Shown one piece after another: positions 698-27,400 of a stretch of 28,570 nt of DNA. The notes under the pieces were generated by a model that saw only the letters and a program-made list of their open reading frames with translations, was not told where the DNA came from and searched no databases. The translations under genes were made by a program, and so were the position numbers. How positions within the stretch are numbered: position 1 is the stretch's first letter; the number at the start of each line of letters is the position of its first letter. Source of the DNA: Amoebophrya sp. A120 (taxonomy: Eukaryota; Protista; Dinoflagellata). Location: the NCBI GenBank assembly GCA_905178155.1, contig CAJINV010000023.1:660659-689228 (forward strand), written 5' to 3'.

Positions 698-3600
698 ATG
701 CTGCCCGGCGCGTTTCTATCGCAAGAAAAAACTGTTTCAGTGTAAACTTGTAATGCAGAAACTGTATCTGAGAACTGTTTGTCTTGCTACACAAGCAAGA
801 CACTGGATTTTTAGCTTTGTTTTCCCCTATAGGACAATCTCGCATGGCAAATTTTCTCTGTGATGTAGAGCAACCGTGTGATGCAAAACTTGCAAAATCC
901 TTACAGTGAAACACTTTTTTCGTCCGATACTCTCTTCCGCAAGCTAGTTCCCCGAATGGAGCGAAAGAGAAGGCAGCTTCAACATCGTTATTGAGAGGAA
1001 AAATCCCCCCTCGCCATATCGAAGCGGTATGTTTCCGAAAATTTGTGTTCCTGATTTGAGACCACAAACCAAGGCTGTCTTGCAAGAAGACAAGTGCAGA
1101 GGCTTCCGCGCCATTATGGAAGCGATTTGGCATGCTGTTGGGCCTAGGGGACAGCCCCAGCCGTTCTTTGTAATGCTAAACAACTAGACCCAAACGCGCG
1201 GACCTAGGCTGAGGATCTGGCTGCGATGTCTTACTGCAAGACAGCGCGCAGTTGTGTACGGAAATCCAGCATCAGAACTTCGTTTTGATATGGGGAGGGA
1301 GGGTTTTTCCTTACGATAATCGTCCATACTGACTCGGTACGCCGGATTCCTTCTATATGACTTGCTCAAATGTTACAATCTCAAGCGTTACAATAGAATC
1401 TGAAATTTGTGTTGCATGATGAGGATGACAGAAGGTTCCACCTTTTGCAATACAAATTTCGCCAGATTGTAGTGAGTTTTGGGGCTCCGAAACTTGTCAT
1501 GCGCAATCCTATGAGAGTTGGCTAGATCATGCAATCTTGCATCACAGATTTCCATATTCTATTGTAACGTTTGAGATTGTAGCACCTGAGCGGGTTATAT
1601 TCTAGCGTGCTTCTTTCTGGTTTTGGTGGAGCGTGAAATCAGCCGGAGAACTAGGTCTTCAGCTGGATCATGGCCCTGTTATTGCCCGGAAAAATCCCCC
1701 CCCCACGTTTATAGAAAGCGCAGCCTTCTGAAAATTTGTGATGCAGATTTGTGGTCACAAATCCTGTCTGCCTTGCCAGAAGGCAAACTCACTGACGCCG
1801 CCACGATATGCAGGCGATTTGTAATGCTGCAGGGCCTACAGGGGCCCAGACGTCTGCCATGCTAGGCCCCTACAGCAAAAGGGCTAGGGCCCGCCACCTT
1901 AGGCGTACGATCTGCGTGCAGCCCTTTACTGCAAGACAAGTGTGATTTGCGTACACAGATCCCGCATCACAGGCTTCCGATTTGATATGGGGAGGAGACG
2001 AGAATTGTCATTTTGATACCTGTGGGACGTTGTTCGCGCGGCAGCGAGGACGATCGAGTTGGACGGGGGCAGGAGGCTATGCATTGCAAAAGTGTCTGTG
2101 TCTGGAAGAGTGGCGGTTCAACTTGTAATGCTGTCTGCGGATTCCAAAAATGTCTGTGTTGCATGAGCAGCAAGAGGAGTCAGCTCATGGCACGCAGAGA
2201 GGGCATTTCTCATGCGTCATTAGCACCAAGAAGCTTTCATAAAATCAGTGATGCTAGAACCAGCATCACAGACCTCACGGATCATGCAACATGTGCATGA
2301 CAAGCCCCGACTCTTCCAGACCTAGACATTTTTGCAGTTGATAGAGGCGCACAGGATGGCGCAGCGCCCAAGGCGGAGCTGCCCGCACCTGAACCCATGA
2401 AGATTACGACAGAGTTATCCTGAGTAAAAACGTACCCACACCAGAGTTGTAATGCAGATTTGCAAAGACAGGAAGACTTGTAATGCGCATCCCCATGAGA
2501 GCCATTTCCAATCGTGTTTTGGAATTTGTGATGCTGTGAACAGGATGAGCAGATGAATCTGTGATGCGGCTGCACTTGCTAACCTGCACTACACTGCAGA
2601 TTGCAACTTGTCATGCGTGACTCACAAAACTCCTAGGTTTGTGTTGCAAAATCCCCATCCTGACTCTGGTGTGGGTACGTTTTTACTCAGGATAAGAGTC
2701 TGGAGGTGAAGGTCTGCATAAAGTAGTACCAATATCAAAATGAAAAATCCTCTCTCCCCACATCAAAACGAAATTTCTGAAGATGCTCCTGGATTTGCGT
2801 GCAGTAGAGGACTGCAGGCCCATATCATGCCGATGTAGAGAGGTTTTGCCCTAAGTAGGCACTTAGCATGAGGAACGTCTATGCTGTAGGCCCAACAGCA
2901 TCACAAACCGCCTGAATGATTGGGCGGACAGCCTATGCCGTTGCTTTCTTGCAAGACAGACACGACGATCATCTGTGGTCACAAATCAGCATCGCAAATC
3001 CTCTGTGGCGTGCCTTTTCGATATGGGGACGAGGGGGGATTTTTCCTTACGATAAAAATCAAGCAGAAGTACAACTAGTGTGCTGCCACCTATCAAATGC
3101 AAAAGTGTCTGGGTCTGGAAGATTCTGAGACTTGTCGTGCATGTTTTGCATGACCCAGGATGTCTGTAATGCACGACCTAGCATCACAGATTTTTAGAGG
3201 GCTTCCTGAACCTGGTGCCTACTCCGCATGACAAACGCCCTCCCCGCGTAGCACAAACTAGACTCCTCTTGCTGGTCATGCGTTACAGATTTTTTTAGAG
3301 ACCGAAGTTAGCATCACAAGTTCCAATTCTTCCAGACCCAGACACTTTTGCATTTGATACCACCGCAAACGGAGCAGACGTGGGACGAGGTTCTTTTGCT
3401 CGGATATCAAAAGGAAAAATCCCCCCTCCCCATATCAAAACGAAGTTTCTGATGCTAGATTTCCGTACACAAATCAGATTTGTCTTGCAGTGGGGGACTG
3501 CAGGCATATGCCAAGCCTGAGTCGAGAGGTTTTGACGTAGGCGCCTAGCATGACAAACGTCTAGGCTGTAAGCCCAACAGCATCAACACAAACCGCCTGC

Positions 3601-6600
3601 ATAATGCGGCGGACTCTCTGGGTTCGTTTTCTTGCAATACAGACAGGCTTTGTGGTCACAAATCTGCGTCACGAATTTTCAGACGAGTAGACTTTCAATA
3701 TGGGGAGGCGGGATTTTTCCCTACAATATCGGAAAGTTTGAGCGGGTGACGAAGGAAACCCCTGCCGAAAAAGCGGCGCGAAGAGCGAAGCATATTGAGA
3801 GGAAAAATGCCCCCTCCCCATATCGAAACGGCATGCTTCCGAAAATTTGTCTTGCTGATTCCCCATTTGATATGGGGTGGGGGCTTTTTTCATTTTGATA
3901 AAGCAGCGAACGTATCTGCAGGGTGCGTACGAGCACGTCGCGCACACCTTCGCGCCGGGCTTTTGCAAGCGGGTGAGTCGACTAGGGCCGGGCGGCGACG
4001 GCGGCAAGAACGTTTGCGCGGACCAGCTCCCCAATGCTGGGCAAAGTAGAAATAATGGCTCCCCTGCCACGTCGCTGACGGGTTCCGTTGGAGCCGGCGA
4101 TCCTTTGGCGACGTCGTTATTACAATGAAAAATGCCCCCACCCCCGAATCGTTGGGAGCATTTGTATTGCAAACCTTTCCAAGTGAAACATTCGCCCTCT
4201 TGCATCTCTCAGCATCACAGGTTTCTAATCGTGAATAGCAAAAATTTGCATTGCAAAAGACCCCAGCAAGAGGGGCGCTTGTCATGCAAGCGATGCGATA
4301 CACGCCGAGACTCTGCATCGGAAAGATTCATACTCCTTTCATGCATAGATAAAAAAGTTCTTCATTTGAAAACCTTACGCATGACAAATTTTTGCAATTT
4401 CAGTGGTGGGGGGCACTTTTTACTGTAATAGTCGTCCTGTCTCGTTTATTCCCTCGGGTCTCGCCTCGATTTTTCCTTCGAAGCGGCCGTAGTGCGGGAG
4501 ACGGGGTATCAAAAGGAAAAATCCGCCCTCCCCATATTAAGAGAGTGTTTCTGATGCTGGATTTGCGTACACAAATCAGGTCTGTCTTGCAGTAGAGGAC
4601 GGCAGCAGGCCCATACTAAGCCTAGGCACAAGGGTAGTTTTGACGTAGGAGCGTAGCATGGCAAGCGTGTACTCTGTAGGCCGCATAGCATGATCACAAA
4701 CAGCCTGCATAATGCGGCTGAGTTGCTGGATTGGCCTTCTTGCAATACCTAGACGACTTGGGGTCACAAATCAGCATCGCAAATTTTCAGCAGTATCCCT
4801 TTTTGGTATGGGGAGGGAGATCTTTCCTCACAATACGGGGTGCGCGGTAGCCACCTTTGACTGCACCGTTCCGCCCGAAAAAGGACAAGCGCTAGCGAAG
4901 AAGCTACCGGGGACCGTATTCTGAGTAAAAGCGGGGCCCACACCCCAGAGTTGTCATGCAAATCTGCATGCCAAAAAAGTTTCATCTCATGCGGAGGGGG
5001 CCCATGAGGAGCATTTTGAAGTCGTGTTTTGGAATTTGTGATTCTAAAATCAGCATGATGTGCTAGATCTGTGATGCTGCTGAACTAGCTCAACAGGATA
5101 ATTACACTACGAGGACATCAAACTTGTCATGCGAAACAGCCAAAGCTGGCTGATTTGTCTAGCAGATTTCCCATCTTGACTATGGGGTCGTGGGGAGGTT
5201 TTTGCGGAGGATAGACCGTCAATTTTCACCCGTGGTGCGTGGGCGAATCGGACGAAGAGAAGCCGATCAGCAGCGACGTGGGCTACAAGAAGAAGACCGG
5301 TATCAGAATGAAAAATCCCCCCTCCCCATAAATCAAAACGAAGTTTCTGATGCTGGATTTGCCTACACAAATCAGATTTGTCTTGCTGGCGAGGACTGCA
5401 GGCCCGTACTAAGTGTGGGCAGAGAGGTTTTGGCCTAGACGCTTAGCATGAAAAACATCCGCGCTGTGGGCCCAACAGCATGACAAACCGCCTGCACAAT
5501 GCGGCGGAGCCTGCGGAGTTGCCTTCTTGTAAGACAGACGCGATTTGTGGCCACAGATCAGCATCACAAATTTCCAAACATATGCCTTTTCGGTATGGGG
5601 AGGGGGGATTTTTGCTTTTGATAACCGGACAGTTTTACACACTGGAGACCATTCAAAGAAAATTAGGCCACGTATCAAAAAAAAAAAATCCCCCCTCCCC
5701 ATATCAAAATGGAAATCTGTGATGCAGCTTTGTGGTCACAAATCAACTTTGTCATGCTAGCAGGGAAAAGATGCGGACTGTAGTGCAGGGTGGTGTGGGA
5801 AAGCCTTGCAGGTCCAGCATGACAGGAGGCAGCTGGAAGTATGAAACAGCATGACAAATTGCCTGCAAACCAGGCCACAGCTGCGGCTCTTGGCTTTCTA
5901 GCAATACAAATCGATTTGTGTACTCAAATACAGCATCACAAATTTCGTTTTCGATATGGGGAGGGGGGATTTTTCCTCTCAATACCACGAGCGCGTCGAC
6001 TTGTTGAAGATGGACATTGAGCGCAGCGAGTTCGGTATCGCAAGAAAAAACTGTTTCACTGTAAACTTGTAATGCAGAAAATGCATCTGAGAAGTATTTG
6101 TCTTGCTACACATGCAAGACAGTGGATTTTTAGCTGTGTTTTTCCTTAGGAATCTCGCATGGCAAATTTTCTCTGTGATGTAAAACAAACTTGTCATGCA
6201 AAATTTGCAAAATCCTTACAGTGAAACACTTTTTTCATACGATATTCGGCGTGGTAAAAGGCCTCCGACTCAACAGCCCTCAACAAGCGGGGGAAGAGCG
6301 AAAATTTCTGCCACGGCAAATCTTGATGGAAACGCATTTGCACGACGCCTACAACTATCAACTTCAAAAATGTCTGGGTCTGGAAACTTGTGATGCAAGT
6401 CCGTGAACAATAAGTGCTCTGTAATGCGCCGCCAAGCGTGACAAGTTTTTTCGTGCTTCTTTGATGCGTATTTCGCATGAGAAACTGCGCTTTTGCATGA
6501 CAGGCAAGAGCACCTCTTGATGGCCGCGCAATACAGAGCGCCGAGTCATGCCAGACTAGCATGACAATCTTCCAGACCCAGACATATTTGCGATGCATAA

Positions 6601-7340
6601 CAACCTCTGGGGCGGGAAAGCTGTCACCGCTGCACAATGGTCGGACTTCTGGCAGAAGTTGCGCGGCCTCTATTAGAATGAAAAATCCTTCCTCTCTTTT
6701 TTAACGAAGTTTCTGATGCTGGATTTGCGTATACAAATCAGATTTGTCTTGCTGGCGAGGACTGCAGGCCCATATCAAGCCTGAGTAGACAGGTTTTGGC
6801 CTAGGCGCTTAGCATGAAAGATGTCTACGCTGTAGGGACGACGCATGACAAACCGCCTGTAGAATGCGGCGGATCCTGTGGCGTTGCCTTCATGCAACAC
6901 AGAGACGATTGGTGGCCACAAATCAGCAACACAAATTTTCGGAAACATACCTTTTCAATATGGGAAGGGGGGATTTTTCCGCTCAATAACCTCGGCTACC
7001 GAGTCATTGCGCACGAACCAAATCCAGTGGGAGCGGTCTGCCACGAGTGGAGCGTCAAGCTCGATATGGATTGCAAATATGTCTGGGTCTGGAAGGTGGA
7101 AACTTGTCATGGTAAATCTGAATCATGTAAAAATCTGTGTTGCATGATTACCAAAAGCTCTTCACTTTTGACTAAGTTAGGATGGAGTTTCTCATGCAGG
7201 ATAGGCATGGCAGAGACCTCGCAGAGTCTGTCATGCTGAGTCCCGCATTCCAGACCTCATGGGTCATGGAAAATCTGCATGACAAGTTCACACTTTTCCA
7301 GATCCAGACATTTTTGCACTTGATACTCGAGGACCAGTGA
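698..7340 (+). CDS. METTL24/Methyltransf_22-like SAM-dependent methyltransferase, type II membrane protein; 20 exons split by 19 introners; 415 aa
   Basis: Removing 19 elements plus 5 nt each gives a 1248-nt ORF from ATG698 to TGA7340. N-terminal TM segment (YAGFLLACFFLVLV), then family motifs CKRVSRLGPGGDGGKNVC, CLVYSLGSRLDFSFE, GCAVATFDCT, VDLLKMDIERSEF, QILMETH and GYRVIAHEPN. Confidence 0.85.
717..929. mobile_element. Introner/MITE family D
   Basis: TIR TATCGCAAGAAAAAA...TTTTTTCGTCCGATA; imperfect TSD GTTTC/CTCTC. Confidence 0.85.
989..1318. mobile_element. Introner/MITE family A
   Basis: TIR TATTGAGAGGAAAAATCCCC...TTTTTCCTTACGATA; TSD ATCGT. Confidence 0.9.
1356..1599. mobile_element. 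Introner/MITE family E
   Basis: TIR TATGACTTGCTCA...TGAGCGGGTTATA; TSD TTCTA; reverse-orientation homolog of 17821-18072. Confidence 0.9.
1680..2018. mobile_element. Introner/MITE family A
   Basis: Diverged A-type TIRs; TSD CCTGT. Confidence 0.85.
2078..2343. mobile_element. Introner/MITE family B
   Basis: TIR TATGCATTGCAAAAGTGTCTGTGTCTGGAA; TSD GAGGC. Confidence 0.9.
2416..2694. mobile_element. Introner/MITE family C
   Basis: Perfect TIR TATCCTGAGTAAAAACGTACCCACACCAGAGT; TSD AGAGT. Confidence 0.92.
2733..3054. mobile_element. Introner/MITE family A
   Basis: A-type TIRs; TSD ACCAA/ATCAA offset by a 3-nt spacer (AAA). Confidence 0.85.
3091..3359. mobile_element. Introner/MITE family B
   Basis: Perfect TIR TATCAAATGCAAAAGTGTCTGGGTCTGGAAGA; TSD CCACC. 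Confidence 0.92.
3405..3728. mobile_element. Introner/MITE family A
   Basis: TIR TATCAAAAGGAAAAATCCCCCTCCCCATAT; TSD TCGGA. Confidence 0.9.
3793..3900. mobile_element. Introner family A, internally deleted (108 bp)
   Basis: Both A-type TIRs retained; TSD AAGCA. Confidence 0.88.
4118..4430. mobile_element. Introner/MITE family G (single copy in window)
   Basis: TIR TATTACAATGAAAAATGCCCCCA...GGGGGCACTTTTTACTGTAATA; TSD GTCGT. Confidence 0.88.
4507..4835. mobile_element. Introner/MITE family A
   Basis: A-type TIRs; TSD CGGGG. Confidence 0.9.
4917..5213. mobile_element. Introner/MITE family C
   Basis: C-type TIRs; TSD GACCG. Confidence 0.88.
5301..5623. mobile_element. Introner/MITE family A
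   Basis: A-type TIRs; TSD ACCGG. Confidence 0.9.
5673..5984. mobile_element. Introner/MITE family A
   Basis: A-type TIRs; TSD CCACG; same subfamily as 27245-27556. Confidence 0.9.
6036..6244. mobile_element. Introner/MITE family D
   Basis: D-type TIRs; TSD TTCGG. Confidence 0.9.
6356..6599. mobile_element. Introner/MITE family B
   Basis: B-type TIRs; TSD ACAAC. Confidence 0.9.
6671..6988. mobile_element. Introner/MITE family A
   Basis: A-type TIRs; TSD GCCTC/ACCTC. Confidence 0.88.
7065..7325. mobile_element. Introner/MITE family B
   Basis: B-type TIRs; TSD CTCGA; close to 26447-26707. Confidence 0.9.
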
Positions 7341-7984
7341 CGATTGTGCGCATTCTAAATGTTGTGTCAGGGTACGGCAAAGTGCAGAGTTTGTCATGCA
7401 GGTAGTCGCGGGGACAAGTACTTCAATTAAACGGACTTTCAGCTTGAGGGACTGAAATGCTTACAATACCTGTGTCAAAAGATAAAGAGACTGCTGTCGC
7501 TTATCGCACTTTCCGAATCTCGAGTGTCTTCTGCAGCTGTCTGCGGACTTCTATATGTGCTGTCGTTGTTTGCGCACGACGCATGACAGATGATCACGGG
7601 CACAGTTAAGAAGGGCTCGATATTGATGGCATCGAACACTTCATGACCAAATAGACAGCATGCGCGTGTTGACTCTGTGGTGACAAACTTCGGAATTACT
7701 TATTCAAAAAAAGGGAGCAGAGGGCTTCGTTGCAGTGCAAGCTTGGAGATGAGAAATCCCAGATTTGCAATTTGGGCGCAGCCGAAATGTGTTATCGTGA
7801 TCTGTGGATGTTGTCGGTTGCCCTTGCCTTTCCGAAATGGAGGCGAAGATCTCAAGTTTAAATTTCTAGAAACGGAGGTAGGACATTGTCCCAACTACAA
7901 AATTCGTAGTTATGCCCAAATCGCATGCTTTTTCACGGCACCAGGGAAGATGTTGAGGAACACGAATTAGTCCTCGGCTTCTTC

Positions 7985-8239
7985 TATCAACTGCAAATAT
8001 GTCTGGGTCTGGAAGAGTGCAAGTTTGTCATGCTTGTCTGGCATGAGTCTTAAATCTGTGATGCATGAGCAGGAAAAGGGCCTCTTGCCTGTCATGCAAG
8101 ATGAACGCAGTTTGTCATGCGAAAAACGAAACACACAGCAGCGCAAAAGCTTGTCATGTTGGGCTGCGTATTGCAGTGCGCCAACAATTCTTAGATATGC
8201 ATCACAAGTTTCCAGACCCAGACATTTTTGCATTTGATA
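7985..8239. mobile_element. Introner/MITE family B, probably in the 5' UTR of the deacetylase gene
   Basis: B-type TIRs; flanked by CTTCTTC on both sides. Confidence 0.88.
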
Positions 8240-8284
8240 CTTCTTCTGTTCCGCAAGCGAGGGCTGCCGTTGTTCGTAACGGTT

Positions 8285-11200
8285 ATGGCGATGAGGGCCC
8301 CGCCCTCGACTGTAGTAACAGCGTTTGTGTTTCACGATGTCGTCGACTGGGAAGAGGCTCCGTTCTGCAGCGACGCCGCGTGGCGAAACTGTATGAGCGC
8401 CGGGCCCTTTCTGACCCGCGGCGCGTTCGATATCAAACGCAAAAATGTCTGGGTCTGGAAGGTTGCAACTTGTAATGCTAGCTCTCCATACGACCTTGGA
8501 AATTTGTATTGCATGGCAAACAAAAGTCGCAGCCTCTTTTGCACATGCAAAAACGCAGTTTGTAGTCTTGCGGATTTGCTATGAGAAAGCGTTCTGAAAT
8601 AAAGTTGTCATGCTGTGTCACATTCGGAACTGTTTCCATCATCCACATTTTAGCATCACAAGTTTCCAGACCCAGATACTTTTGCAATGCATATTCGAAG
8701 GAAAGTATCGCAAGAAAAAACTGTTTCACTGTGAACTTGTGATGCAGAAAACGAAACGCCAAAGTGTTTGTCTTGCTACACCTGCAAGACATCCGATTTG
8801 CAAGCGTGTTTTCCCTTGGGAAGCGCGCATGGCAAATTTTCTGTCTCGTGTGTAACAAACTTGTGATGCAGATATCGCTAAGTCACAACAGTGAAACAGT
8901 TTTTTCGTGGGATAGAAAGTTGCGATTCTTGTGTGAAACGTACGACCACGTGGTTTCCGTCCAGGATTTTTTTGCGCTATCAAATGCAAAAATGTCTGGT
9001 TCTGGAAGAATTGGAACTTGTGATGCTAGCTTTGGTCTCTAAAAAAATCAGTATTGCATGACCAGCAAGAGGAGTCTAGTTTGTGCTACGCGGGGAGGGC
9101 GTTTTGTCATGCGGAGTGGGCATCAGGAAGTCCCCCTCTAAAAATCTGTGATGGTAGGGCATGCATCACAAACAATCCTGGGTCATGCAAAACATGCATG
9201 ACAAGTCTTAGAATCTTCCAGATCCAGACATTTTTGCATTTGATATGCGCTATTTGGCAAAGACCATCTGCCAGCGTCCAAACAGCAGGCGGCCGAGGAC
9301 CAAACCGAAAGCGAAAATAACCGGCAATTGGCGCACGAAACAAGTGGTGGCCGCAGAGTCTGCGTCCTGACGTTCGATGACGGGATTCGCAGCGACTCGG
9401 CTACCGTAGTGCCACTTTTGCAGAAGTACGGCGCGACGGCATCCTTCTATGTGATCGGTGAAGTATTGGAGAAGCGCACGGTGGTCCGGGCTCACAAAAT
9501 CCAGTTTCTTGTTCATGGCCCGAAACGGCACGCCGTTCTGGCAAAAGTTCTCGAGCATCTGCAGGAGCAGGAGCAGCTAAGAACTACATTATCTTCTACT
9601 TCCACATCTTCTACAAGAACGTCGAGAACAATGGTGGTGGAACAACAACTACACGGAAAAAATAAAGTAGAACACGACGAGAGCTGCAGGGAATCAACAT
9701 GGCTAGAAAATTTGTGGGCAACAAAGTCGCGGACCCGGTATCGGCGCAACTTCTGGTCCCGCTGCTATCGAACGGAAAAATCCCCCCTCCCCATATTGAA
9801 ACGGAAATTTCTGTTGCTGGATTTGTGTACACAAATCAGCTCTGTCTTGCAGTGAGGCACTACAGGCAGAGCCTAAGCCTGCGTGTGGGGGGTTTGGTGT
9901 AGGTGCTTGGCATAGCAGAGGCCTGCCATGATGCCGCCACAGCATCCATTACAAACCGCCTGCATAACGCGGCGGACTCTTTGGATTTGCCCTCTTGCAA
10001 GAGAGACTGGATTTGTGGTCACAAATCAGCATCACAAATTTTTAGAGTCATACCTTGCCAGTATGGGGAGGGGGGGATTTTTTCTCTCAATAGCTGCGAA
10101 ATCTTTCTCACTGCGGTCCTGCGCGATCCGGCGCACGGGGTCCTCTTGGACGAGCTTTTTTCCCGATTTGTGCTTGACCGGCTGAAAGTATCCGAGTCAC
10201 AGTTTATTCTGAGAAAATCTTCCCTCCCCATATCGAAAGGGAAATTTGTGATGCTGACTTGTGACCACAAATCAGCTGTGTCTTGCGTACAAGGCAAAGT
10301 GCACCCATGTGGCGCATAGTGCAGCGAGTCTGTCATGCGTTTTCTCCTATGCCAGATTTGTTTCTTATGCTCAGCTGCTAGCCGGACGATGCGTAGCACC
10401 TTCTAAATGGGCTTAGAATAATATGCCGCCACGTCGCTCTTGCTGCAATAGAAAGCTCATTTGTGTACATAAGTAAATCCAGCAACACAAATTGTCTTTT
10501 GACTATGGGGTGGGGGCTTTTTTCAGTTTGATACAATTCGCCGCCAAGTTCTACGCGAGTGACGCGGAGCTCGCGGACATGCAGCGTGCCGGGATGGTAT
10601 CAAAAGGAAAAATCCCCCCTCCCCATATCAAAGCCGAATAAATCTGTGCTGCGGGATTTGTGTAAGTACACAAATCAGCTTTGTCTTGCAGTATGGGAAT
10701 GCAGGCAGATACGAAGCCTTCCGGGCGGGGATGTTCTGACGTAGGCACTTAGCACGACAGAGACAGATCCCCGCTGTAGGCCTAGCAGCATTACAAACCG
10801 CCCGCAAATAAATGCGGCGAAGTGTCTGGATTTGCCTTCTTTCAATACAGAGACGCTCTGTGGCCACAAATCCGCATCACAAATTTTCACAAGTGTCCCC
10901 TTTTGGTACGGGAAGGGGGGATTTTTCCTCACGATAGATGGAGCTCGGCGCGCATGGGTACTACCACGACAAGCGTGACGACGTCGAAAACTGGAACCGG
11001 TGCGCGACGGCGATGGAACGCGTCCTGGGAACGTCGCCCGTATCCTGAGTAAAAACGTACCCACACCAGAGTCAGGATGGGGAATCGGCTAGACAAATCC
11101 ACAAGTTTTGGCTGTCTTGCATGACAAATTTGATGGAGCCGTATTGTAGTGCTGTTTGAGCTAGCTCAGCAGCATCACAGATCTAGTATATGGTACTGAT

Positions 11201-14200
11201 TGGAGCATGACAAATTGCAAAGCACGAGTAGAAAACGCTTGTCATGGGACTCCGCATGAGAAACATTTTCAGCATGCACATTTGCATCACAACGATGGGG
11301 TGGGGACGTTTTTAAATACGATAGCCTGTCAGTCTGACGTATCCGAACGGAGACCACCAGACCGTGCCGTATTAAGTGCAAAAGTATCTGATACTCGTAT
11401 TGCAATCATGCGTATACAAATCTTTTTCTGAAGGTAAACCCGCATTACAAATTTTATTTCTCATTATTGCGCTCTTGCTGGACATTACCAACATTTGCCC
11501 ACGCAGAGCCGTCCTCTTGCCGGACACAACCAACATCTGTCCGAAACAACAGCCCAGGGCCAAGACGACACCGTGAGGACGTACGACCACAGGGGGTTCG
11601 TCTCAATGATGATGATCATGCTGAGGAAATTTGTGCTGCATTCCATTTATATTACGAGTGCGATACTATTGCAATTCATATGCCGGACCTGCCGGCAAAA
11701 CTGTGTGAGAGAATAAAATCCCTCCAAGCCGGGTTTACCCTCACCCCCGGATCCTTTCACGTCAACCCGGTAACGGGGCAGCTACTCGACGAGGAGATGG
11801 ACCCAGTCGAAAAAAAACCTTCGCGAGGACCGTTTGGAAAACAAATGCTGCTACCACGCGAAGACTGCCGCTCTTATCAAATGCAAAAATGTCTGGTCTG
11901 GAAGAGTGCAAACTTGTCATGCATATTTTGCATGCCCCGTGAGGTCTGCAATGCAGGACTTAGCATGACAGGTTCTGCGAAGTCTCTATCATATCTATCC
12001 TGCATGACAAACTGCCGCTAAAAAAACTTGTTCAGAAGTGGACACCTTTTGATATTTGCAATGCATAGCTCCATCGTAGACGCGCATGCGGAGACCAACC
12101 GAGTGGCTTTTTTGGTCTCCGACATGCCCACGGCACTGGTCGCCCTGGAGTATCTGCTGCAGACGCAGGAGCGTCGCATTGGACTGGTAATCCTTCAGCA
12201 GCAGGAGTCTCATGTATTCTGTGTAAAAACATTCCCACCCCGAAGTTGTCATGAAAATGCGCAATGTTGACAGGAATCGATTTGTAATGCGTATCTCCAC
12301 GAGAGGCATGCCCAGTCGCGTTTTGACATTTGTAACGCTGTAAATAGAATGAGAAAGTGGCTTTCTCATGCGGCTTCCCTTGCTAGCCAGCACTACCCTG
12401 CAGATGGAAACTTGTCATGCAGAACTCCCAAAGCGTGCGGATTTGTGTTGCAGACTTCCCATCTTGACTACTGTGTGCGGACGTTTTTACTCAGGATATC
12501 ATGATGTTTTTGCTCAGGAGGACAAAGTGCAGCGAGAGAATATCGCAAGAAAAAAGTGTTACAGTTATAAATTATGTTGCAGAACACGCAGGAGGGATAA
12601 CTACCTCTGTCATGCACGAAATGCTTTCAAACCGTATTTCGTACGTGTTTCCCCGTAGGATTTCTGCAATGCAAGTTTTCCCTCTCATGCAGAGAGATTT
12701 TTTGTGTTGCTGAATGGACAACAAATGTGTAACTGTAACACTTTTTTCGTGGTATAGAGAACCTGGGAGAAGGCGGAGAATCGACGTCCTCCAATATCCT
12801 GTGTAAAAACGTCCCCGCCCTATAGCCAAGATGGGAAATCTGCTAGACAAATCAACAAGCACTGGCTCACGCGCATGACAAGTTTGGCTTCGACGTAGTG
12901 CTGTACTTAATCCTTTTCGGCTACTTCAGCAGCATCACAGATCTAGAATAGGATGCTGATTGGAGCATTACAAAGGGCAAAACACGACTAGAAAGTGCTT
13001 CTTATGGGGCTCCGCATGAGAAAGATTTTGAGTATGCAGCTCTGCATGACAACTGCGGGGTGGGGACGTAGTTTTTAAACAGGATATTATCCGACGCGGC
13101 CAGGGGTCCCGTTGCCGGCGCGGTAGAAGCCACGATCCAGCTGGCGACGCAGATTGAGTATCAGAAGGAAAAATCCCCCCTCCCCATATCGAAGTGGAAA
13201 TCTGTGATGCTGGATTTGTGTACACAAATCGGATTTGTCTTGCAGTGGAGCAGAGCCGGGGTAGGGACATTTTGGTGTAGGAACCTAGCAAGGCAGGCAT
13301 ATTCTCCGTAGGCCATACAGCATTACAAATTGCCTGCAGAACGGGGCGGGGTTTTTGGATTTGCCTTCTTGCAATACAGAGACGATTTGTGGCCTCAAAT
13401 CAGCATCACAAATTTTCAGAAGTATCCCGTTTTGGTATGGGAGGGGGGATTTTTCCTCACAATATTGAGGACCTGTGTGCCTTGCATGGCGTCGACACGC
13501 ACCGGGCCCATACCGCGGACCTGCGGCACTCTGCGGACCTGCAAGCGCTCGAACGCGCGCGGCCCAGCGTGTTTGTCTCCGTCGGATGGCGGGCCTTGTC
13601 TGTCCCGGCCTTGGCACAAACAGAGTACGGCGCCTGTGGGCTGCTCAAAGTGCGAGTAAAAGGAGGAGAAAATGAAAATGAAACAAAAACAACAAAAACT
13701 TCCTCTTTTACAACCACGACGTCGTCAACGGATCATGATCTCGTTGTTCATGAAAATAATGATCACAACATATTCTGAGCAAAAACGTCCCCACCCCAGA
13801 GTTGTCATGCAATTCTGCATGCCAACGAAGTTTCTCATGCGGAGCCCCATGAGAAGCATTGTCTAGTCGTGCTTTGGAATTTGTGATGCTAGAATCAGCA
13901 TGCTATGCTAGGTCTGTGATGCTGCTGAGCTACCTAAAACAGGACTACACTACGAGGACAGACTTATCATGCGAAGTAACCAAAGCTGGTAGATTTGTCT
14001 AGCAGACTTCCCATGTTGACTCTGGTGTGGGGACGTTTTTACTCAGGATACAACAGCCACCTCTCGTCGTCGCCACCGACAGCTCCTGCACAACATCCTC
14101 ATATCAAAAGGAAAAATCCCCCCTCCACATGCTGAAAAGGTATGTTTCTGAAAATTTGTGATGCTGATTTGTGACCACAAATCCTGTCTCTCTTGCAAGA

Positions 14201-17721: not shown

Positions 17722-20700
17722 ATGACGGTGCTGAACTTGAGCGCAGCATGCCTCCAGGAGGCCTTCAACGAAAAATGTGTGCTGATTACGGGCGCCACCG
17801 GATCCTTCGGGCAGCACCTTTATAACCCGCTCAGGTGTTACAATCTCAAACGTTGCAATAGAATATGGAAATCTGTGATGCAAGAGTGCATGATCTAGCC
17901 AACTCTCATAGGATTGCGCATGACAAGTTCCGGAGCCCCAAACCCCACTACAATCTGGCGAAATTTGTATTGCAAAAGGTGGAATGCTGCGCGAGTCTGT
18001 CATGCTCATCATGAAACACATATTCGAGACTCTATTGTAACGCTTGAGATTGTAACGCTTGAGCAAGTCATAACCTTGTTTCCAAAATTCTGGAACACTG
18101 CACCCCAGCTGCGATCGTGATTCTGTCCCGGGACGAGCTGAAACAGTCGGTCATGCAAGAGAAGTTTGGGAGGAGAGTAGCCTATGTAAAAACGAAGCCC
18201 GCCACACCCCAGAGTCGTCAAGATCATTTTGCAATACAAATAAATCTAGAAAATGTTTTCTTGGGAGTCCTCACGCATGTTGACAAGTTCTTGCAGGCTG
18301 TAGTGTAGTGCAGTTTAAAAATATTAGCAAAGGAAGCCCCCGCATAACAAATCCATGTTCTTATCCTAATTTCAGCATTACAAACTATGCTAAAACACGA
18401 ACAGAAATGCTTCACTCTCCTGCGGAGTAGACACCGCATTACAAATCGACGATTCCTGTATTTGTAATTGAAGACCCGCATGACAAGAACTATGGGGTCG
18501 TGTGGGCGGCCCTGTTTTTCCTCAGGATAGAGAGCCACCGTGAAGTATGAACTGCAAAAGCATCGTACTCGTATAAATGCATTACAAATTTCCTCAGCAT
18601 GAGATATAAAAATTTGGAATGCGGGTTTACCTGAAGAAAAAAATTTGTAATGCATGACTGCAATTACTACGACTACGATACTTTTGCACAGGATATGGAG
18701 TACCTTCTCGGGGACATCCGCGACTATGAAAGGCTGACGGACGCCTTCGAGGATGTGGACATCGTCATCCACGGCGCTGCCTTGAAGCAGGTTCCTAGCC
18801 TCGAGCGCAACCCCTTCGAGGCGATAAAGACCAACGTGCTCGGCGCGAACAATGTGATTCGGGCGGCGGCTATGCAAGAAAAAAACTGTATAAGTGTAAC
18901 TCTGTGTCTATAATGCAGAACATGCAACAGAATAATACACCTGTCATGCCAGACAGCCATGAAGTCCTCTTTATTTATGTGTGTTTTATTCCCTTACAAG
19001 CCACGCATGACAGGTTTTCTCTGTCATGTAGAGGAGCAAATTTGTGATCATTTCATGCTGTCAGCTGCCAATAAAGGAAGTTACACTAGCACAATTTTTT
19101 TCTTGGATAGCGGTGGCTTGCGGGGTGAAAAAGTATTATATGTAAAAACGTCCCCACCCCATAGTCAAGTTGGGAACTCAGCAACAAAAATCTAGCAAAT
19201 CTAGATGTTTTGGGAACAACGCATGACAAGTTGCGCGCCGTAGTGTAGTGCATGTTAACAAGGACAAGCGCATCACAAATCCATCTGCTTATCCTGTTTT
19301 CAGCATTACAAATTCCAAAACACGACTGGAAATGCCTCCCTTGGGGATGCGCATGACAAATGTTCCTGTAATCGCAAATCTGCATGACAACTCTGGGGTT
19401 GGAAGTTTGCGAGAATCAGAGTAAGGAATTGTTGGCAAAAAAGTGAGGCGTTGTTCTGTTGGCAAGTGGGCACAAGTTGGCACAGTATGGCTGTTGGCAC
19501 AGTATGGATATGGTTGGTGGCGATAACAGAGTTGGAATATAGTGGCCGGGAGATGATGGTGATGGCACTTTGGCGTCCGCCTGACCCACCCGCCCTGCGT
19601 CTCAAGCCATCTGCGGCCATGGCACAATGGGGGGGCAAAGTGTGTCGCATTTTGTTTAGCATGACAACTCTGGGGTGGGGACGTTTTTGCTCAGGATAAA
19701 AAGCTGATCGCCCTCAGCACCGACAACGCCTCGTCTCCCGTCAGTCTGTATCAAAATGAAATCCTCCCCATATTGAAACGGAAATTTCTGTTGCTGGATT
19801 TGCGTACACAAATCAGATCTGTCTTGCAGCGAGGTACTGCAGGCAAAGCCTAAGCCTGCGTATGGGGGGTTTGGTGTAGGTGCTTGGCATAGCACAGGCC
19901 TGCCATGATGCCGCCACAGCATTACAAATCGCCTGCATAAAGCGACAGACTCTTTGTGCTTGCCCTCCTGCATCAAGAGAGACAGGATTTGTGGTCACAA
20001 ATCAGCATCACAAATTTTCAGACGTGTGCCTTTTCAATACGGGGAGGGGGGATTTTTCCTTACAATAGTCTGTACGGCGCCACCAAGCTCTGCCAGGATA
20101 AACTGATGGTGGCTGCAAATCACATGTACCGAGGAAATATCAAATGTAAAAATGGCTGGGTCTGCCCCCAATTACATAAATTTGGCTGGGTGAGGTAACT
20201 CCCAATTACATAAATTTGCATAGGCTTTAGTTGCTTAAGTGTTCAAATCGCATACAAGTAACGCTCTGCGCGAAGGATAAAATTGCAATAAGAGTTAGTT
20301 CCTGAGATCTTAGATAGTTCCGAAATCCGCAATACAAATCCAAGGTCAGTTCAAATTTCAGTACATAGTTCCTCTCATGCTCCATGTCATAAATGCTTCC
20401 CGATAAATCGATGATCTAGTAGTACTTTACTTTATTTACCTATAGCTCATAATGATTCTTACCCGAATGCTATAATAGTTGTTAATCTAGTTTTTAATGC
20501 GCATTTTGGGGGAAGGGTCATGAACAGTAGTAGTGTCAGCGAATAGTAGTGAGCATGCACCCACGGTGTGCTATTCGCACGGCCATGACACTACTGCGCG
20601 AGCACCCACAGGCTCCCAGGTGCCTAGCGCTTTGGCCAGCGTAGCACCTCGGTAGAGCCTGCGGGACCCCGTGGGCAGAAGTTCATTGCACCCAATTTGT

Positions 20701-23086
20701 ACGTTGCGCAAGTGATAGTATAAGTAGTAATAGTTAGTTCCACCGGTGGACATATTAGCATGCTTAATCTCTCTCTAAATAGTGCAAACACGTAGTTCTC
20801 TTTTATTTTCTTTCTTCATAAAGTTCAAGTCGTTCTCTTCCCTGTGCTGTACCAAGGTCTTGTTTCCAGACAAAACACCAGACATTTTTACATTTGATAG
20901 GAAAAGCCCGCCAGGCACCGGTGGTCTCGGTCGTGCGCCTCGGAAATGTGTTTGGCAGCAGTGGGCTATCAGAATCAAAAATCCCCCCTCCCCATATCAA
21001 AACGAAGTTTCTAATGCTGGATTTGCGTACACAAATCAGATTTGTCTTGCTGGCGAGGACTACAGGCCCATATCAAGCCGGAGTACTTGAGAGGTTTTGG
21101 CCTAGGCGCTTATCATGACAGACGTCGATGCTGTAGGAGCAACAGCATGACGAACTGCCTGTAGCATGTGGCGGAGCCTGTGGAGTTGCCTTCATGCAAC
21201 ACAGAGACGATTTGTGGTCACAAATCACCAACAAAAATTTTTTCCAATAATATACCTTGTCCATATGGGGAGGGGGGAACGTTCCTCGCAATATGGGTCG
21301 GTGGTTCCCCTCTTTTTGCAGCAGGCGCAGCTGAGTGGGACGGTGACCGTGACCGACGAGAACATGTATCAAATGCACATATCCCTGGATGTTTGGAAGA
21401 TTGCCAGTTTTGTCATGCATATTTTGCATAACCCATGATGCCTGTAATGCATGTCCGAGCATTATAGATTTTTAAAGGGCCCTCTGATGCGTATTCCGCA
21501 TAAGAAACGCGCACTCTGCGTAGCACAAACTGAACTCCTCTTGCTGGTCATGCAAAAATACTTACAGACTTTTTTCACCTTCCAAAGACAGCATCACACG
21601 TTGCAACCTTCCAGATTTCCAGGGATATTTGCATTTGATAACATGACGCGTTTTACAATGGCTCTGGACGAGAGCGTTGGCTTCGTGGTGAATTGCATCA
21701 ACATGATGCCTATCAACTGCAACTATCGATCTGGATGTCTGGAAGGTCGCAAGACTTGTCATTGATGTTCTTTTGTATGACCACCCATGATTGTCTGTGA
21801 TGCATCACCTAGCAGTGGTTCACAGATTTTTTTTAGAGTCCGTCCTTATGCCTAATCCGCATGAGAGATAATGCCCTCGTCTCTGTGTAGCAGGAGAAAC
21901 TAGGTTCCTCTTGCTAGTCATGCAATTTACGGATTTTTTTTTTAGGATCCAAAGACAGCGTCACAAGTTGCAACCTTCCAGAATTCCAGGGCTAACATTT
22001 GCATTTGATAGTGCGCGGCGGTGAGATTTTCGTACCCAAGTTGAGTACGTATCGCCTGGGCACTCTGGTGGATGTTTTTGCAAGTGAAAACATAGCCGTA
22101 AGCACGGTGGGCGCGCGACCAGGGGAGCGAATTCACGAAGTGATGGTTCCTATCCTGTGCAAAAGTATCGTACTCGTATAAATGCATGACAAATTTTCTC
22201 AGCATGAGAAATGAAATTTGTAATGCGGATTTACCTTCAAAAAAAGATTTGTAATGCATGTTTGCAATTACTACGAGTACGATACTTTTGCACAGGATAG
22301 TTCCGCAGGATGAAGCAGTGAACGCGCTCGAGTTCGACTATCAAGTGCAAATATGATTGGGTCTGGAAGAGTGCAAGTTTGTCATGCTTGTCTGGCATGA
22401 CTCTTAAATCTCTCATGCACATTATCCAAGAGCTCCATTTTGTTGTCATGCAGAAACGCAGTTTGTCATGCAGAATAGGCAACACCCAGAAGCTCAGAAG
22501 CTTGTCGTCCTGAGCCAGCACTTGTGGCCTCCTCATGATACGCCACCCTGCATCACAAGTTGCCAGGCCCAGACATATTTGCATTTCATATCGACGACCA
22601 CTTTGTCATTTGTCCCGACGGCCCTTGGTGGGATGCGGAGCGGAAATTCTACAAGGAGAGCAAGCAGGGGAAGCACGTTGGGCGCAACTTTGTCTACTCG
22701 AGCAACGGCGATGAGAGTGGGCCCTCTTATCATTTGTAAAAACGTCCCCATCCCAGAGTCAAGATGGGGATTTTGCAACACAAACCTTAAAGTCTTGGGA
22801 GCCACGCATGACAAGTTTCAGTCTGTAATGTAAAACTGCAGTTTAGCAAGGGAAACCGCATAACAAATCCATCTCCTTATCCTGTTCACGGCATTACAAG
22901 TTCCAAAACACAATGGGCAATGGCTCTCATGGGGATGCGCATTACAAATGCTCTTGTGCTTGCAGATCTGCATGACAACTCTGGGGTGAGGACGTTTATT
23001 TTACACGGGATACTTCTAGCACGTTCGTTAGCAAAGAGGATCTCCAAGGGCTTTTAGCGGACGTGCTCGACCGAGCCGAAAACTGA
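17722..23086 (+). CDS. pseB: PseB/FlaA1-like UDP-N-acetylglucosamine 4,6-dehydratase (extended SDR, Polysacc_synt_2); 14 exons split by 13 introners; 357 aa
   Basis: Spliced ORF of 1074 nt from ATG17722 to TGA23086. Motifs VLITGATGSFG, SRDELKQ, GDIRD, HGAALKQVP, NPFEAIKTNVLGA, ALSTDNA..P..LYGATK, VRLGNVFGSSGSVVPLF, MTRF, GGEIFVPK, RPGERIHEVM and YSSN. Confidence 0.88.
17821..18072. mobile_element. Introner/MITE family E
   Basis: TIR TATAACCCGCTCAGGTGTTACAATCTCAA; TSD ACCTT. Confidence 0.9.
18178..18529. mobile_element. Introner/MITE family C (diverged; left end starts TAG)
   Basis: TAGCCTATGTAAAAAC...GTTTTTCCTCAGGATA; TSD GAGAG. Confidence 0.85.
18546..18695. mobile_element. Introner/MITE family F
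   Basis: F-type TIRs; TSD TGAAG/TGGAG. Confidence 0.88.
18871..19109. mobile_element. Introner/MITE family D (diverged)
   Basis: TATGCAAGAAAAAAA...TTTTTTTCTTGGATA; TSD GCGGC/GCGGT. Confidence 0.85.
19134..19698. mobile_element. Introner family C with a nested insertion of about 260 bp
   Basis: C-type TIRs; TSD AAAAG; internal 18-bp duplication flanking foreign DNA. Confidence 0.88.
19749..20067. mobile_element. Introner/MITE family A
   Basis: A-type TIRs; TSD GTCTG. Confidence 0.9.
20138..20899. mobile_element. Long (762 bp) introner with family B TIRs and an unrelated interior
   Basis: TATCAAATGTAAAAATGGCTGG...CCAGACATTTTTACATTTGATA; TSD GGAAA. Confidence 0.88.
20967..21293. mobile_element. 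Introner/MITE family A
   Basis: A-type TIRs; TSD TGGGC/TGGGT. Confidence 0.88.
21367..21640. mobile_element. Introner/MITE family B variant
   Basis: TIR TATCAAATGCACATATCCCTGGA; TSD ACATG. Confidence 0.9.
21711..22010. mobile_element. Introner/MITE family B variant (diverged)
   Basis: B-type TIRs; TSD ATGCC/GTGCG. Confidence 0.85.
22151..22299. mobile_element. Introner/MITE family F
   Basis: Perfect TIR TATCCTGTGCAAAAGTATCGTACTCGTA; TSD GTTCC. Confidence 0.92.
22339..22590. mobile_element. Introner/MITE family B
   Basis: B-type TIRs; TSD TCGAC. Confidence 0.9.
22728..23012. mobile_element. Introner/MITE family C
   Basis: C-type TIRs; TSD CCTCT/CTTCT. Confidence 0.87.
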
Positions 23087-23601
23087 TCAGGCTGTCCTGT
23101 GCTGTCAGGCTGCAGTCATGGAGTAGTACTAAGTTGTTGTGCTGAGTGTACTAGTTTTTGATTTTGTTACAACTACATGGGGGAACAAAACAAATAAGAA
23201 CAGTGGAACAAGAAAAAACAAATAGGATTTTTTACTTCTTTCGCGCCGTCGTGGGTTTTTTTTTGTTGATAAAAAAGAACCTCACCACGACGAGCAGCAG
23301 GATCTCGGTAGAATATTAGTACTGAGATGACTATTAGTCGTGCAGTAAACAAGAAAAAGAAAATCACTTTTTTTGATATACCATTTGCTACTTGCAACTG
23401 CCCATCTACTGGCTACTTACTCGTCGTCGTCGTCCTGCGATAAAGCTGATTGAAAATACCAATAAAACTAGTCAAGCAAGAGCCTTACTATGGGACGATG
23501 CATTTGTAGTTTTATTATTTTTCGCTGGAGGAGTTTTTCAAATGGTGATGCTGTTGTCACAAATTAAGTATTCTGAAATCGTCATCAACTGCGTGCTCAC
23601 G

Positions 23602-23856
23602 TATCAAATGCAAATATGTCTGGGTCTGGAAATCTGTGATGCTGAATTGAGCATGATTGAAGCGCTTGCAATGGCAGCCAGGCATGACAAGTTTTGGAGA
23701 CGCCTGCGAATGCCTACCACGCATCACAAATTGCAGCGTTTTTGCATGACAAAACAAGCTTCTCTTTTGCTGCTCATGCAACACAGATTTTCCAGGAATG
23801 CAAGACACGCATCACAAGTTCCACTGTTACAGACCCAGACATATTTGCATTTGATA
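23602..23856. mobile_element. Family B element outside the four reconstructed genes
   Basis: TIR TATCAAATGCAAATATGTCTGGGTCTG; TSD TCACG/TAACG. Confidence 0.88.
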
Positions 23857-24412: not shown

Positions 24413-27400
24413 ATGGGACCACAGCGGCAGCCTTTTTTTTCGCATCCCTCCGGGCGAACAAGCCGGTTATCTTCGTGCTGCCCGTATCCTGAGTAAAAAC
24501 GTCCCCACACCAGAGTCAGGATGGGGATTTTGCAACACAAACCTAGGAGTTTTGGGAGTCACGCATGACAAATTGCACTCCGCAGTGTAGTGCTGGTTAG
24601 CGAGTGCAGCCGCATCACAGATTCATCTGCTCATCCTGTTCACAGCATCACAAATACCAAAACACGACTGTACATGGCTCTCATGGGGATGCGCATTACA
24701 AGTCTTCCTGTCTTTGCAAATCTGCATTACAACTCTGGTGTGGGTACGTTTTTACTCAGGATAGCCCGTTGTGTAGCTTTATCGGGGTGGCGATTTTCGT
24801 CAGCGTTCTGCAGTATCGCGTGCACCAACGCAGTGGCGGGAAGCTCGCGCCCTGCGGCGTTCGTCGTGCCGTGGTGACGGGCGGCGGGGCGCCAGGTGGT
24901 GCTAGTGGTCCAGGGCAACTGCAACAGGAAGTACGCACTCAGCGAGATTATCATGCCGTCCAAGAACAAGCTATCAAATGCAAAAATGTCTGGGTCTGGA
25001 AGAGTGCCAGACTTGTCATGCTTGTCTGGCATGACTCGAGAAGCTGTGTTGCATAGACACGAAAAGGCCCTCTTCCCCTGTCATGCAAAAACGCAGTTTG
25101 CCATGCGGAATACGCAAGACATGGGAGCGAAAAAATTTGTCATGCATAGCTGCGTATTGCAGTGCGTCTACCATTCACTTTTAGCATTACAAGTTTCCAG
25201 AATTAGACGTATTTGCCATGCATACAGGCTGCTCTCGTACAACAACCAGCCGAGACCAGTGGAACTACGAGGACCCCGTATCAAAAGGAAAAATCCCCCC
25301 TCTCCATATCGAGATGGAAATCTGTGATGCGGGATTTGTGTACACAAATCGGCTTTGTCTTGCAGTAGATAGAAGACTGCAGGCAGATACAAAGCCCGAT
25401 ATTAAACACACTCTGATAATATAACCACGTAGCAAAGCACCCATATCCTCCGTAGAAGGCCATACAGCATATACAAATTGCCTGCAGAACGCGGCGGGGT
25501 TTTTGGAAGATTTGCATTCTTGCAATACAGAGAACAAGATTTGTGGTCTCCAAGCAGCATCGCAAATTTTCCGAAGTGTAGTCCCGTTTTGGTCTGGGGA
25601 GGGGGGATCGGGATTTTTCCCCGCAATATTACCCCAGCTGCAGCGTCCTCGACGAGCGCCGCAGGAGGAGCCCTCGATCACAAGCGATGTGAGCTCGGTG
25701 AGCAGACCCTTTGGGATCCCTTCCGCGGAGCACCTGGTGAAGGGGGAGGTAGTAGTAGTGGTGCAGCCGGAGGCACTGTGCTCGGACGTCCTCTTGCCGC
25801 AAGAAGCCTGCTACCCGAGTTTTTGCAGGTGTACGGGCGGCGACCGGGCGGGCAAAACGCGGGCGGGGGTGGGATATTCCACCATTTTGCGCTGTGGGTG
25901 ATTGTGAAAGCCCTGAAGCCGACGCATGTGATCGAGTCCGGTTGCCACACCGGCGTCGGCAGCTGGGTGTTACGGCAAGCCGCCGGTGCAGACGCCCACT
26001 TCACCTGCGTGAGCCCGGAGCAGCCCTCCACCTACGTGGACAAGATGGGTCCGGAGAAATATGAAAAGGAAAAATCCCCCCTCACCATATCAAAACGAAG
26101 TTTCTGATGCTGGATTTACGTACACAAATCAGGTTTGTCTTGCTGGAAAGGACTGCAGACCCATATCAAGCCTGAGTAGAGAGGCTTTGGCCTAGGCGCT
26201 TAGCATGAGAAACGTCTATGCTGTAGGCCCAGCGGCATCACAAACCGCCTGCATAATGCGGCAGAGCCTGTGGAGTTGTCTTCTTGCAAGACAGACGTGA
26301 TTTGTGGTCTCAAATCAGCAAGACAAATTTTCGGAAACATACCTTTTCGATATGGGGAGGGGGGATTTTTCCTCTCAATAAGAAAAGCAAATACTTCACG
26401 GGCGCCAATTTCAAAGACTTCACGAAAATTGACTGGACCGGTTGGCTATGGATTGCAAAAGTGTCTGGGTCTGGAAGATTGTAACTTGTCATGGTAAATC
26501 TGAAGCATGCAAAAATCTGTGTTGCATGAATGCCAAAAGCTGTCCACTATAGATCAAGTTGGAAGGAAGTTTCTCATGCAGAATAGGCATGGCAGAGACC
26601 TCGCAGAGTCTGTCATGCTAAGCCCCGCATTCCAGACCTCATGGGTCATGGAAAATCTGCATGACAAGTCTACAATCTTCCAGACCCAGACATTTTTACA
26701 TTTGATATTGGCCCAAGGAGACGACTCTGCTTTTTTTCGATGACCATCAGGCCTGCGTGCGCCGGGTGGAGGAGGCGCAGGACCGCGGGTTCCGCCATCT
26801 GGTATCAACTGCAAATATCCCTGGATGTCTGGGAGGTGATTGCGAGATTTGTCATGCTAGTTCGGCATGACTCTGAACTCTGTATTGCGTGGCCGCGAAG
26901 ACGAACTCCTCTTATCTGTCATGCAAGAACGCAGTTTCTCAGGGGAGTACGCAACTCAGAACCACGGAAAAACTTGTCAGCATGCTGGGCAGCGCATACA
27001 AAATTACATGGCGCTCACTAACTATTCCCTTTCTTGCATCACAAGTTCTTTCCAGACATCTAGACATATTTGCAATGCATATCTGGTCTTCGATGACAAC
27101 TACGTGCCCGGACACGGCGACAACATGTCCCTAAAGCGAATCTGCCAGAAGGACATGTACCCCGCCCTGCGGTTTCCCATGGTGTTTTCCGATAACTTCA
27201 ACCGAAAAAAGCGGCCTTTGTCGGACGAGGAATTCGGAACCTACTATCAAAAGGAAAAATCCTCCCACCCCATACTCAAACTAGAAATTTGTGATGCAGA
27301 TTTGTGGTCACAAATCAGCTTTGTCGTGCTAGAACGGAAAAGATGCGGACTATAGTTCTGGTTTGCGTGGGAAAGCGTTGCATCTTCAGCATGACAGGAG

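Follow-up and report, generated by a model that had tools for sequence, protein, structure and literature searches.

Mismatched target repeats place the junction of Amoebophrya sp. A120 introners after repeat base 3 or 4, likely at a set distance from the elements' TAT and ATA ends

We found that messages from which introners have been removed, in genes of Amoebophrya sp. A120, retain bases 1-3 of the upstream copy of the 5-nt target repeat and base 5 of the downstream copy, likely by a ruler-like rule. Our main reading, to which we assign a probability of about 0.55, is that these introners are joined after repeat base 3 or 4, are cut at a fixed distance from their TAT and ATA ends and are probably removed by a spliceosome that works without U1. 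The register taken by itself, N(1-2)-TAT…ATA-N(3-4), is very probable. What appears to be new is the junction fixed within the repeat and its register relative to the ends of the inverted repeats (TIRs); the elements themselves were known.

The window, the whole stretch of DNA that was analysed, is 28,570 bases long and holds 59 complete TAT…ATA inverted-repeat elements, which together occupy 17,196 bases. Excising each element with 5 further nt leaves four long open reading frames, all on the + strand. One exon of the third gene shows 100% identity to a 357-aa deposited protein labelled Amoebophrya sp. A120, one of the first gene is a 100% match to its own 415-aa deposited protein, likewise so labelled, and one of the fourth is 100% identical to a 1035-aa database protein, 475 residues of which lie in the window. 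For the second gene, which starts near 8286, the protein search found no deposited protein.

The elements are the published A120 introners and were already described by Farhat et al. 2021 (PMC7789003), who characterize them by an inverted-repeat motif of TAT, 7 nt and AAA and by 3-5-nt direct repeats that overlap the boundaries. The same motif of TAT, 7 variable nt and at least three A recurs in the window, with TAT at 117 of 118 ends and A at TIR positions 11-13 in 56-58 of 59 elements per end and position. The elements fall into repeated families (20, 15, 12, 3, 3 and 2 copies), and loss from transcripts is seen in the third, PseB-like gene, where 13/13 elements are missing in a spliced contig. 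Below, k denotes the number of upstream repeat bases kept in the message. The GT…AG ends of U2-type introns occur in 0/59 elements at any k from 0 to 5. Left and right ends are alike in composition over 18 positions, and no 3'-specific motif was seen there. The three genes checked, with 40 introns, can be read without any canonical GT-AG intron; genome-wide, canonical introns are put at ~35% in A120 (PMC7789003). The 20-member family (e.g. 3405-3728) is oriented 15:5 relative to transcription (p=0.04, uncorrected), and orientation is balanced in the other families. Two elements, 19134-19698 (565 nt) and 20138-20899 (762 nt), are over-long and carry internal insertions that seem to have no relation to the TIR families; related sequence occurs in other X1 and X5 contigs.

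The direct repeat at the exon/intron boundaries appears in the window as a perfect 5-mer at offset 0 in 43/59 elements, compared to 0-1/59 at eight shifted offsets. Perfect repeats of length 3, 4, 6 or 7 are found in 0-1/59 elements, and repeats with at most two mismatches in 55/59. The 5-nt repeat is not due to chance. Since the reading frame stays open at any k, only mismatched repeats are informative about the junction. Mismatches are rarest at repeat position 4 (3/29, p=0.14), where elements 11041, 12795 and 7985 carry them. Element 11041-11323 (11036..11328, + strand) has GCCCG/GCCTG, a clean and synonymous position-4 mismatch. Element 12795-13086 (12790..13094, + strand) has TCCAA/TTATC, with TTA after the right TIR, and k=3 gives Ser there and k=4 Thr. 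The same extra TTA stands right after the right TIR in 12795-13089 and 25279-25631, which belong to different families; in both, a near-copy of the 5-mer found upstream comes next, and at 25279 the extra TTA adds one codon to the protein. The extra TTA is possibly an insertion or repair footprint. At element 7985-8239 (7978-8246), which apparently precedes the second gene's start codon, the direct repeat is not 5 nt long but 7 nt (or 4 nt), CTTCTTC. A further element, in 23602-23856 with TCACG/TAACG, follows the PseB-like stop codon, ahead of the neighbouring gene, and may be part of a 3' UTR.

The PseB-like (UDP-GlcNAc 4,6-dehydratase) gene extends over 17722..23088 on the + strand (end approximate, at the stop codon), with 14 exons, 357 aa and 13 introners. 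Its best family match is TIGR03589 (E=5e-114), at 380.6 bits; the curated cut-off of 407.75 bits is not reached, so we call the protein PseB-like only. The first-pass annotation had reported four mismatched repeat pairs in this gene. All four are present and directly flank TAT…ATA elements; the gene also has a fifth, CCTCT/CTTCT, which had been overlooked. Element 18546-18695 (18541..18700, + strand) lies between TGAAG (18541-18545) and TGGAG (18696-18700) and keeps upstream base 3 (k≥3), so that the intron is 18544-18698 or 18545-18699; the contig piece starts at 18699 and the deposited residue is K70. Downstream base 5 is kept (k≤4) at element 18871-19109 (18866..19114, +; GCGGC 18866-18870, GCGGT 19110-19114), on the basis of a contig piece that ends at 18869 and of deposited residue V127. 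It is also kept (k≤4) at element 20967-21293 (20962..21298, +; TGGGC 20962-20966, TGGGT 21294-21298), on the basis of deposited S191. Element 21711-22010 (21706..22015, +; ATGCC 21706-21710, GTGCG 22011-22015) keeps both upstream base 1 and downstream base 5, and deposited M234 and R235 give 1≤k≤4. The fifth pair, at element 22728-23012 (22723..23017, +), is synonymous and keeps upstream base 2 (k≥2), with a contig piece starting at 23015. Element 18178-18529 (18173..18534, +) has TAG instead of TAT at its left end and is still excised as the element plus 5 nt.

The retained letters had earlier been argued from conservation in the PseB family, and this argument is borne out in a sample of 111 homologues (120 matches listed of 276, with 8 shorter than 280 aa dropped and the query excluded). 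Among these listed matches, residue 70 is R in 106 and K in 1, residue 127 is I, L, M or V in 102, residue 191 is S in 111/111, residue 234 is M in 88, and residue 235 is variable; yet E70, A127, P191, V234 and P235 each occur in 0/111. Unspliced X5 contigs differ from the window by 0 letters across TGAAG, TGGAG, GCGGC, ATGCC and CTTCT, and this agreement indicates that the mismatched letters are not assembly errors, with the qualification that the assembly itself may derive from X5. Among the matches listed, sequences related to the PseB-like exon show 66-77% identity and are bacterial where the organism is named. Its neighbours include two genes with an FkbM-type methyltransferase domain and a further gene with what we take to be polysaccharide-deacetylase-like motifs. 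The neighbourhood could be a set of horizontally acquired glycan-modification genes that were later filled with introners.

Junction predictions were set down before the comparison with the spliced contig (run X1 record 1, 1723 nt; X1 is only guessed to be RNA). The contig is without the elements, and its coordinates equal removal of the element plus 5 nt at 5/5 checked places. At three mismatched junctions it gives k≥3 (start at 18699), k≤4 (end at 18869) and k≥2 (start at 23015), which provides nucleotide-level support for two of the four junctions of the first-pass annotation and for the fifth pair. All readable mismatched junctions (3/3, in this one contig) agree with the predicted register, though minor variants would be lost from a contig. 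Retention of a whole upstream or whole downstream copy, the outcome at odds with that register, was seen neither in the contig nor in the deposited proteins. The earlier proposal that the intron starts 1-2 nt before the left TIR and ends 3-4 nt after the right TIR is supported by the contig (3/3) and by three proteins. The X5 contigs keep the elements and the window's repeat copies. The raw RNA runs X9 and X10 yielded 2 and 0 reads, and the organism is not in them.

The deposited proteins lead to the same register. The three genes with a database protein contain 40 introns, 8 of which are informative at residue level. When all introns are cut at one k, there are zero differences at k=3 and at k=4 (415/415, 357/357 and the 475 in-window residues of 1035); k=0-2 is contradicted by all three proteins and k=5 by two of the three. 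In the first gene, element 717-929 (712..934, +; GTTTC/CTCTC) keeps upstream base 3 (k≥3), as residue 6 of deposited P0121 is F, and element 6671-6988 (6666..6993, +; GCCTC/ACCTC) keeps upstream base 1 (k≥1; P0121 residue 388). Element 2733-3054 (2728..3059, +; ACCAA/AAAAT, three mismatches; P0121 residues 111-112) alone confines k to 3 or 4. Homology is unlikely to lie behind junctions 717, 2733 and 6671, because the first-gene exon search matched its own protein only. Element 25279-25628 (25274..25636, +; CCCCG/TTACC, 1/5 matching) gives k≥3, with P0122 reading TTRTPPAAA. Together, the 8 protein-level junctions and the synonymous contig junction form nine constraints, five of them outside the original four, and their common solution is k=3 or 4. 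If k were independent and uniform, the outcome seen would have p=0.011, any common k p=0.014, and the five additional junctions p=0.046. Three of the nine junctions were read as nucleotides, in one contig, and six come solely from deposited gene models, which were built from transcript and protein alignments.

The repeat does not appear to be the guide, because elements 2733 (2/5 matching) and 25279 (1/5) keep the same TIR-measured register as the rest. At 25279 a better repeat copy, CCCCA, lies 3 nt further out, yet the protein follows the cut measured from the TIR. Repeat-guided excision at this element was rejected, as all six repeat-guided versions fail against P0122. TAT/ATA is a nearly invariant sub-terminal signal, with 1 deviation in 354 bases compared to 14 mismatches in 275 bases of the repeat pairs (p=7e-5); when only genes with a deposited protein are counted (40 introns), the figures are 1/240 and 10/190 (p=0.003). 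That TAT/ATA was kept while the repeats drifted suggests that the ends are read after insertion. This conservation may come partly from transposase needs and from the element search, which was seeded on TAT; the 40 introns still fully account for the three proteins within the window.

We also considered RNA folding. The terminal TAT:ATA pairing has a probability >0.5 in 45/59 folds, and the 14/59 elements without a TAT-on-ATA fold include three spliced ones, 19749, 20967 and 25279. TIR positions 11-16 form a paired stem in 52/59 folds, and Watson-Crick pairing at positions 4, 5 and 7 is limited to 24-31/59. A wobble test on the sense strand, in which family copies are not independent, gave no indication that RNA pairing is under selection (G·U 39 vs A·C 58, p=0.07, in the opposite direction). 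The first-pass annotation had the cut positioned by the hairpin; the cut does track the TIR ends, but this would fit reading of the motif as well as base pairing, and the wobble asymmetry gives pairing no support.

Between the two registers we lean modestly towards k=4. At k=4, intron position +2 is T in 59/59 elements and +4 is T in 58/59. The earlier statement that there are no fixed terminal dinucleotides therefore applies at k=3 and not at k=4, where the second intron base is always T. Likewise, the cut is asymmetric in that its spacers are unequal, but by merely 1 nt if k=3. Nine A120 site types predominate in Table S4 of PMC7789003, and T stands at +2 in each of them. We do not regard them as proving k=4: eight also have A at -2, and +2 T plus -2 A is impossible in a single 5-nt register. 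An aligner that slides towards GT-AG or CT-AC would yield such +2 T / -2 A types.

The rule that we propose would read exon / N(1-2)-TAT…ATA-N(3-4) / exon, with spacers totalling 5. The repeat itself would not be read, and the cut would be measured from the TAT and ATA ends. Because the spacers total 5, any insertion would restore the original message, whatever the target sequence. More tentatively, the TIR stem may bring the ends together in place of U1. At k=4 the 5' end would be N-U-A-U, with a +4 U as well as the +2 U of spliceosomal introns, and TIR positions 11-15, an A-run, would give a U-run ~14-19 nt before the 3' junction. The polypyrimidine tract usually lies at about this distance, 14-19 nt before the 3' junction. 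In A120, U1 and snRNP27 were undetected and U2, U4, U5 and U6 were found (PMC7789003), and in yeasts the loss of SNRNP27K is linked to a preference for +4 U (PMC10581693). Given this link, the retained U2, U4, U5 and U6, the undetected U1 and snRNP27 and the near-constant +2 T and +4 T at k=4, we infer that a U1-less spliceosome is slightly ahead of a nuclease-ligase route. A stronger version, a sequence-blind ruler code in which the TIR ends replace both splice sites and U1 and the spacers sum to the 5-nt duplication, falls a little short of an even chance.

The same fixed register could instead be produced outside the spliceosome, in a Euglena-like manner, which we consider unlikely. A nuclease would measure from the base of the TIR stem and a ligase would join the exons, the staggered cut leaving a 1- or 3-nt 3' overhang; this corresponds to the hairpin reading of the first-pass annotation. 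The stem paired in 52/59 folds, the lack of fixed end dinucleotides at k=3 and the presence of both element orientations in sense-strand genes are consistent with it. So is the precedent of Euglena introns, in which spacers of 3 nt and 5-6 nt accompany a paired motif (PMC12501133) and which, according to a review (PMC11282704), are reportedly released as circles rather than lariats. However, the expected G·U excess is absent, several spliced elements fold poorly at their ends, and what is conserved in TAT/ATA is the sequence itself, no compensatory changes having been seen. A120 has also kept almost all spliceosomal proteins (PMC7789003), though canonical introns would account for that.

It is more doubtful still that the junction is specific to each intron within the repeat, or wobbles between 3 and 4, and that the agreement on 3-4 is partly chance. 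All nine constraints intersect at 3-4 (p=0.014) and element 2733 by itself brackets these values, even though there are nine junctions only and most give one-sided bounds. Wobble would be expected to leave position 4 least mismatched, as observed, if both copies are sometimes exonic. The legend of Fig. 3 in PMC7789003 calls the sites variable relative to the hairpin, but such variability would be expected from sliding alignments over perfect repeats. Finally, the joined form might be an artefact of reverse-transcriptase template switching at the hairpin base, or an intronless DNA copy, and we regard either as very improbable. X1 is merely guessed to be RNA, and a hairpin with direct repeats is a classic substrate for template switching. 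Yet 13/13 elements are missing together, which restores a conserved 357-aa enzyme, and the X5 contigs still contain the elements. Moreover, switching keeps the downstream copy or needs the repeat, whereas the message retains upstream bases 1-3, and the register is unchanged at elements where 1-2 repeat bases match.

The introners of PMC7789003 are the same elements as those studied here; the difference is that the junction is now confined to repeat base 3 or 4. The legends of that paper describe the sites as variable with respect to the hairpin, the border as unknown and the repeats as 1-5 nt from the sites, and passages of two reviews (PMC11282704, PMC11453091) also describe the A120 border as unknown. 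In 21/58 A120 rows of Dataset S2 of Gozashti 2025 (PMC12130899), the automated calls are mixed (co-opt both, co-opt 5' and carry 5'), with TSDs of 2-5 nt. A fixed A120 junction obtained from mismatched repeats was not found in the literature searched; figures 3, 4 and S19-S25 of PMC7789003, the remaining 37/58 A120 rows and two files of PMC12130899, and subscription papers may bear on this.

Euglena nonconventional introns follow the code 5'-N3CDG…CH'GN5-6/R-3' (Nomura et al. 2025, PMC12501133). The A120 elements share with them a paired sub-terminal motif, the lack of GT-AG and asymmetric fixed spacers that are longer at the 3' end (1-2 and 3-4 nt, nine junctions). Unlike in Euglena, there is no CDG/CH'G motif at +4 and -6, the ends being TAT/ATA; the spacers total the 5-nt TSD, the first exon base follows no clear purine rule (G+A 31-33/59), and the lineage is unrelated. 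By analogy, then, the A120 elements appear to work like Euglena nonconventional introns, their closest working analogue, and are not members of that class. In diplonemids, too, non-canonical introns have ends that pair, through a route described as unknown (PMC12621601). Other introners take both splice sites from the target duplication, e.g. in Florenciella (PMC9860276). Here, too, both A120 junctions come from the duplicated target and message length is unchanged; however, Florenciella-type introners recruit spliceosomal dinucleotides, whereas A120 has 0/59 GT…AG and apparently tolerates any target. The MITE-derived introns of Fritillaria borealis have the preferred ends AG-AC and AG-AT and the preferred target TAC (review PMC11282704). 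As in Fritillaria, A120 elements with TIRs and TSDs are removed in bulk and have non-GT-AG ends, but the 59 elements show no end or target preference at repeat positions 1-5.

The removal of non-GT-AG introns without U1 in Amoebophrya is a stated open question (PMC7789003), and it concerns tens of thousands of introns. The published borders stayed undefined, since a perfect repeat conceals where the junction falls. A mismatch in the repeat is a natural label and lets RNA-seq data that already exist fix the border. A fixed register would reduce a seemingly lawless set of introns to one rule, correct annotated coordinates and name the nucleotides at the catalytic centre; once these are known, a spliceosome and a nuclease-ligase route become directly testable against each other. 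If the ruler code is true, any insertion in any gene would be an intron excised perfectly from birth, by a mechanism convergent with that of Euglena and independently arisen.
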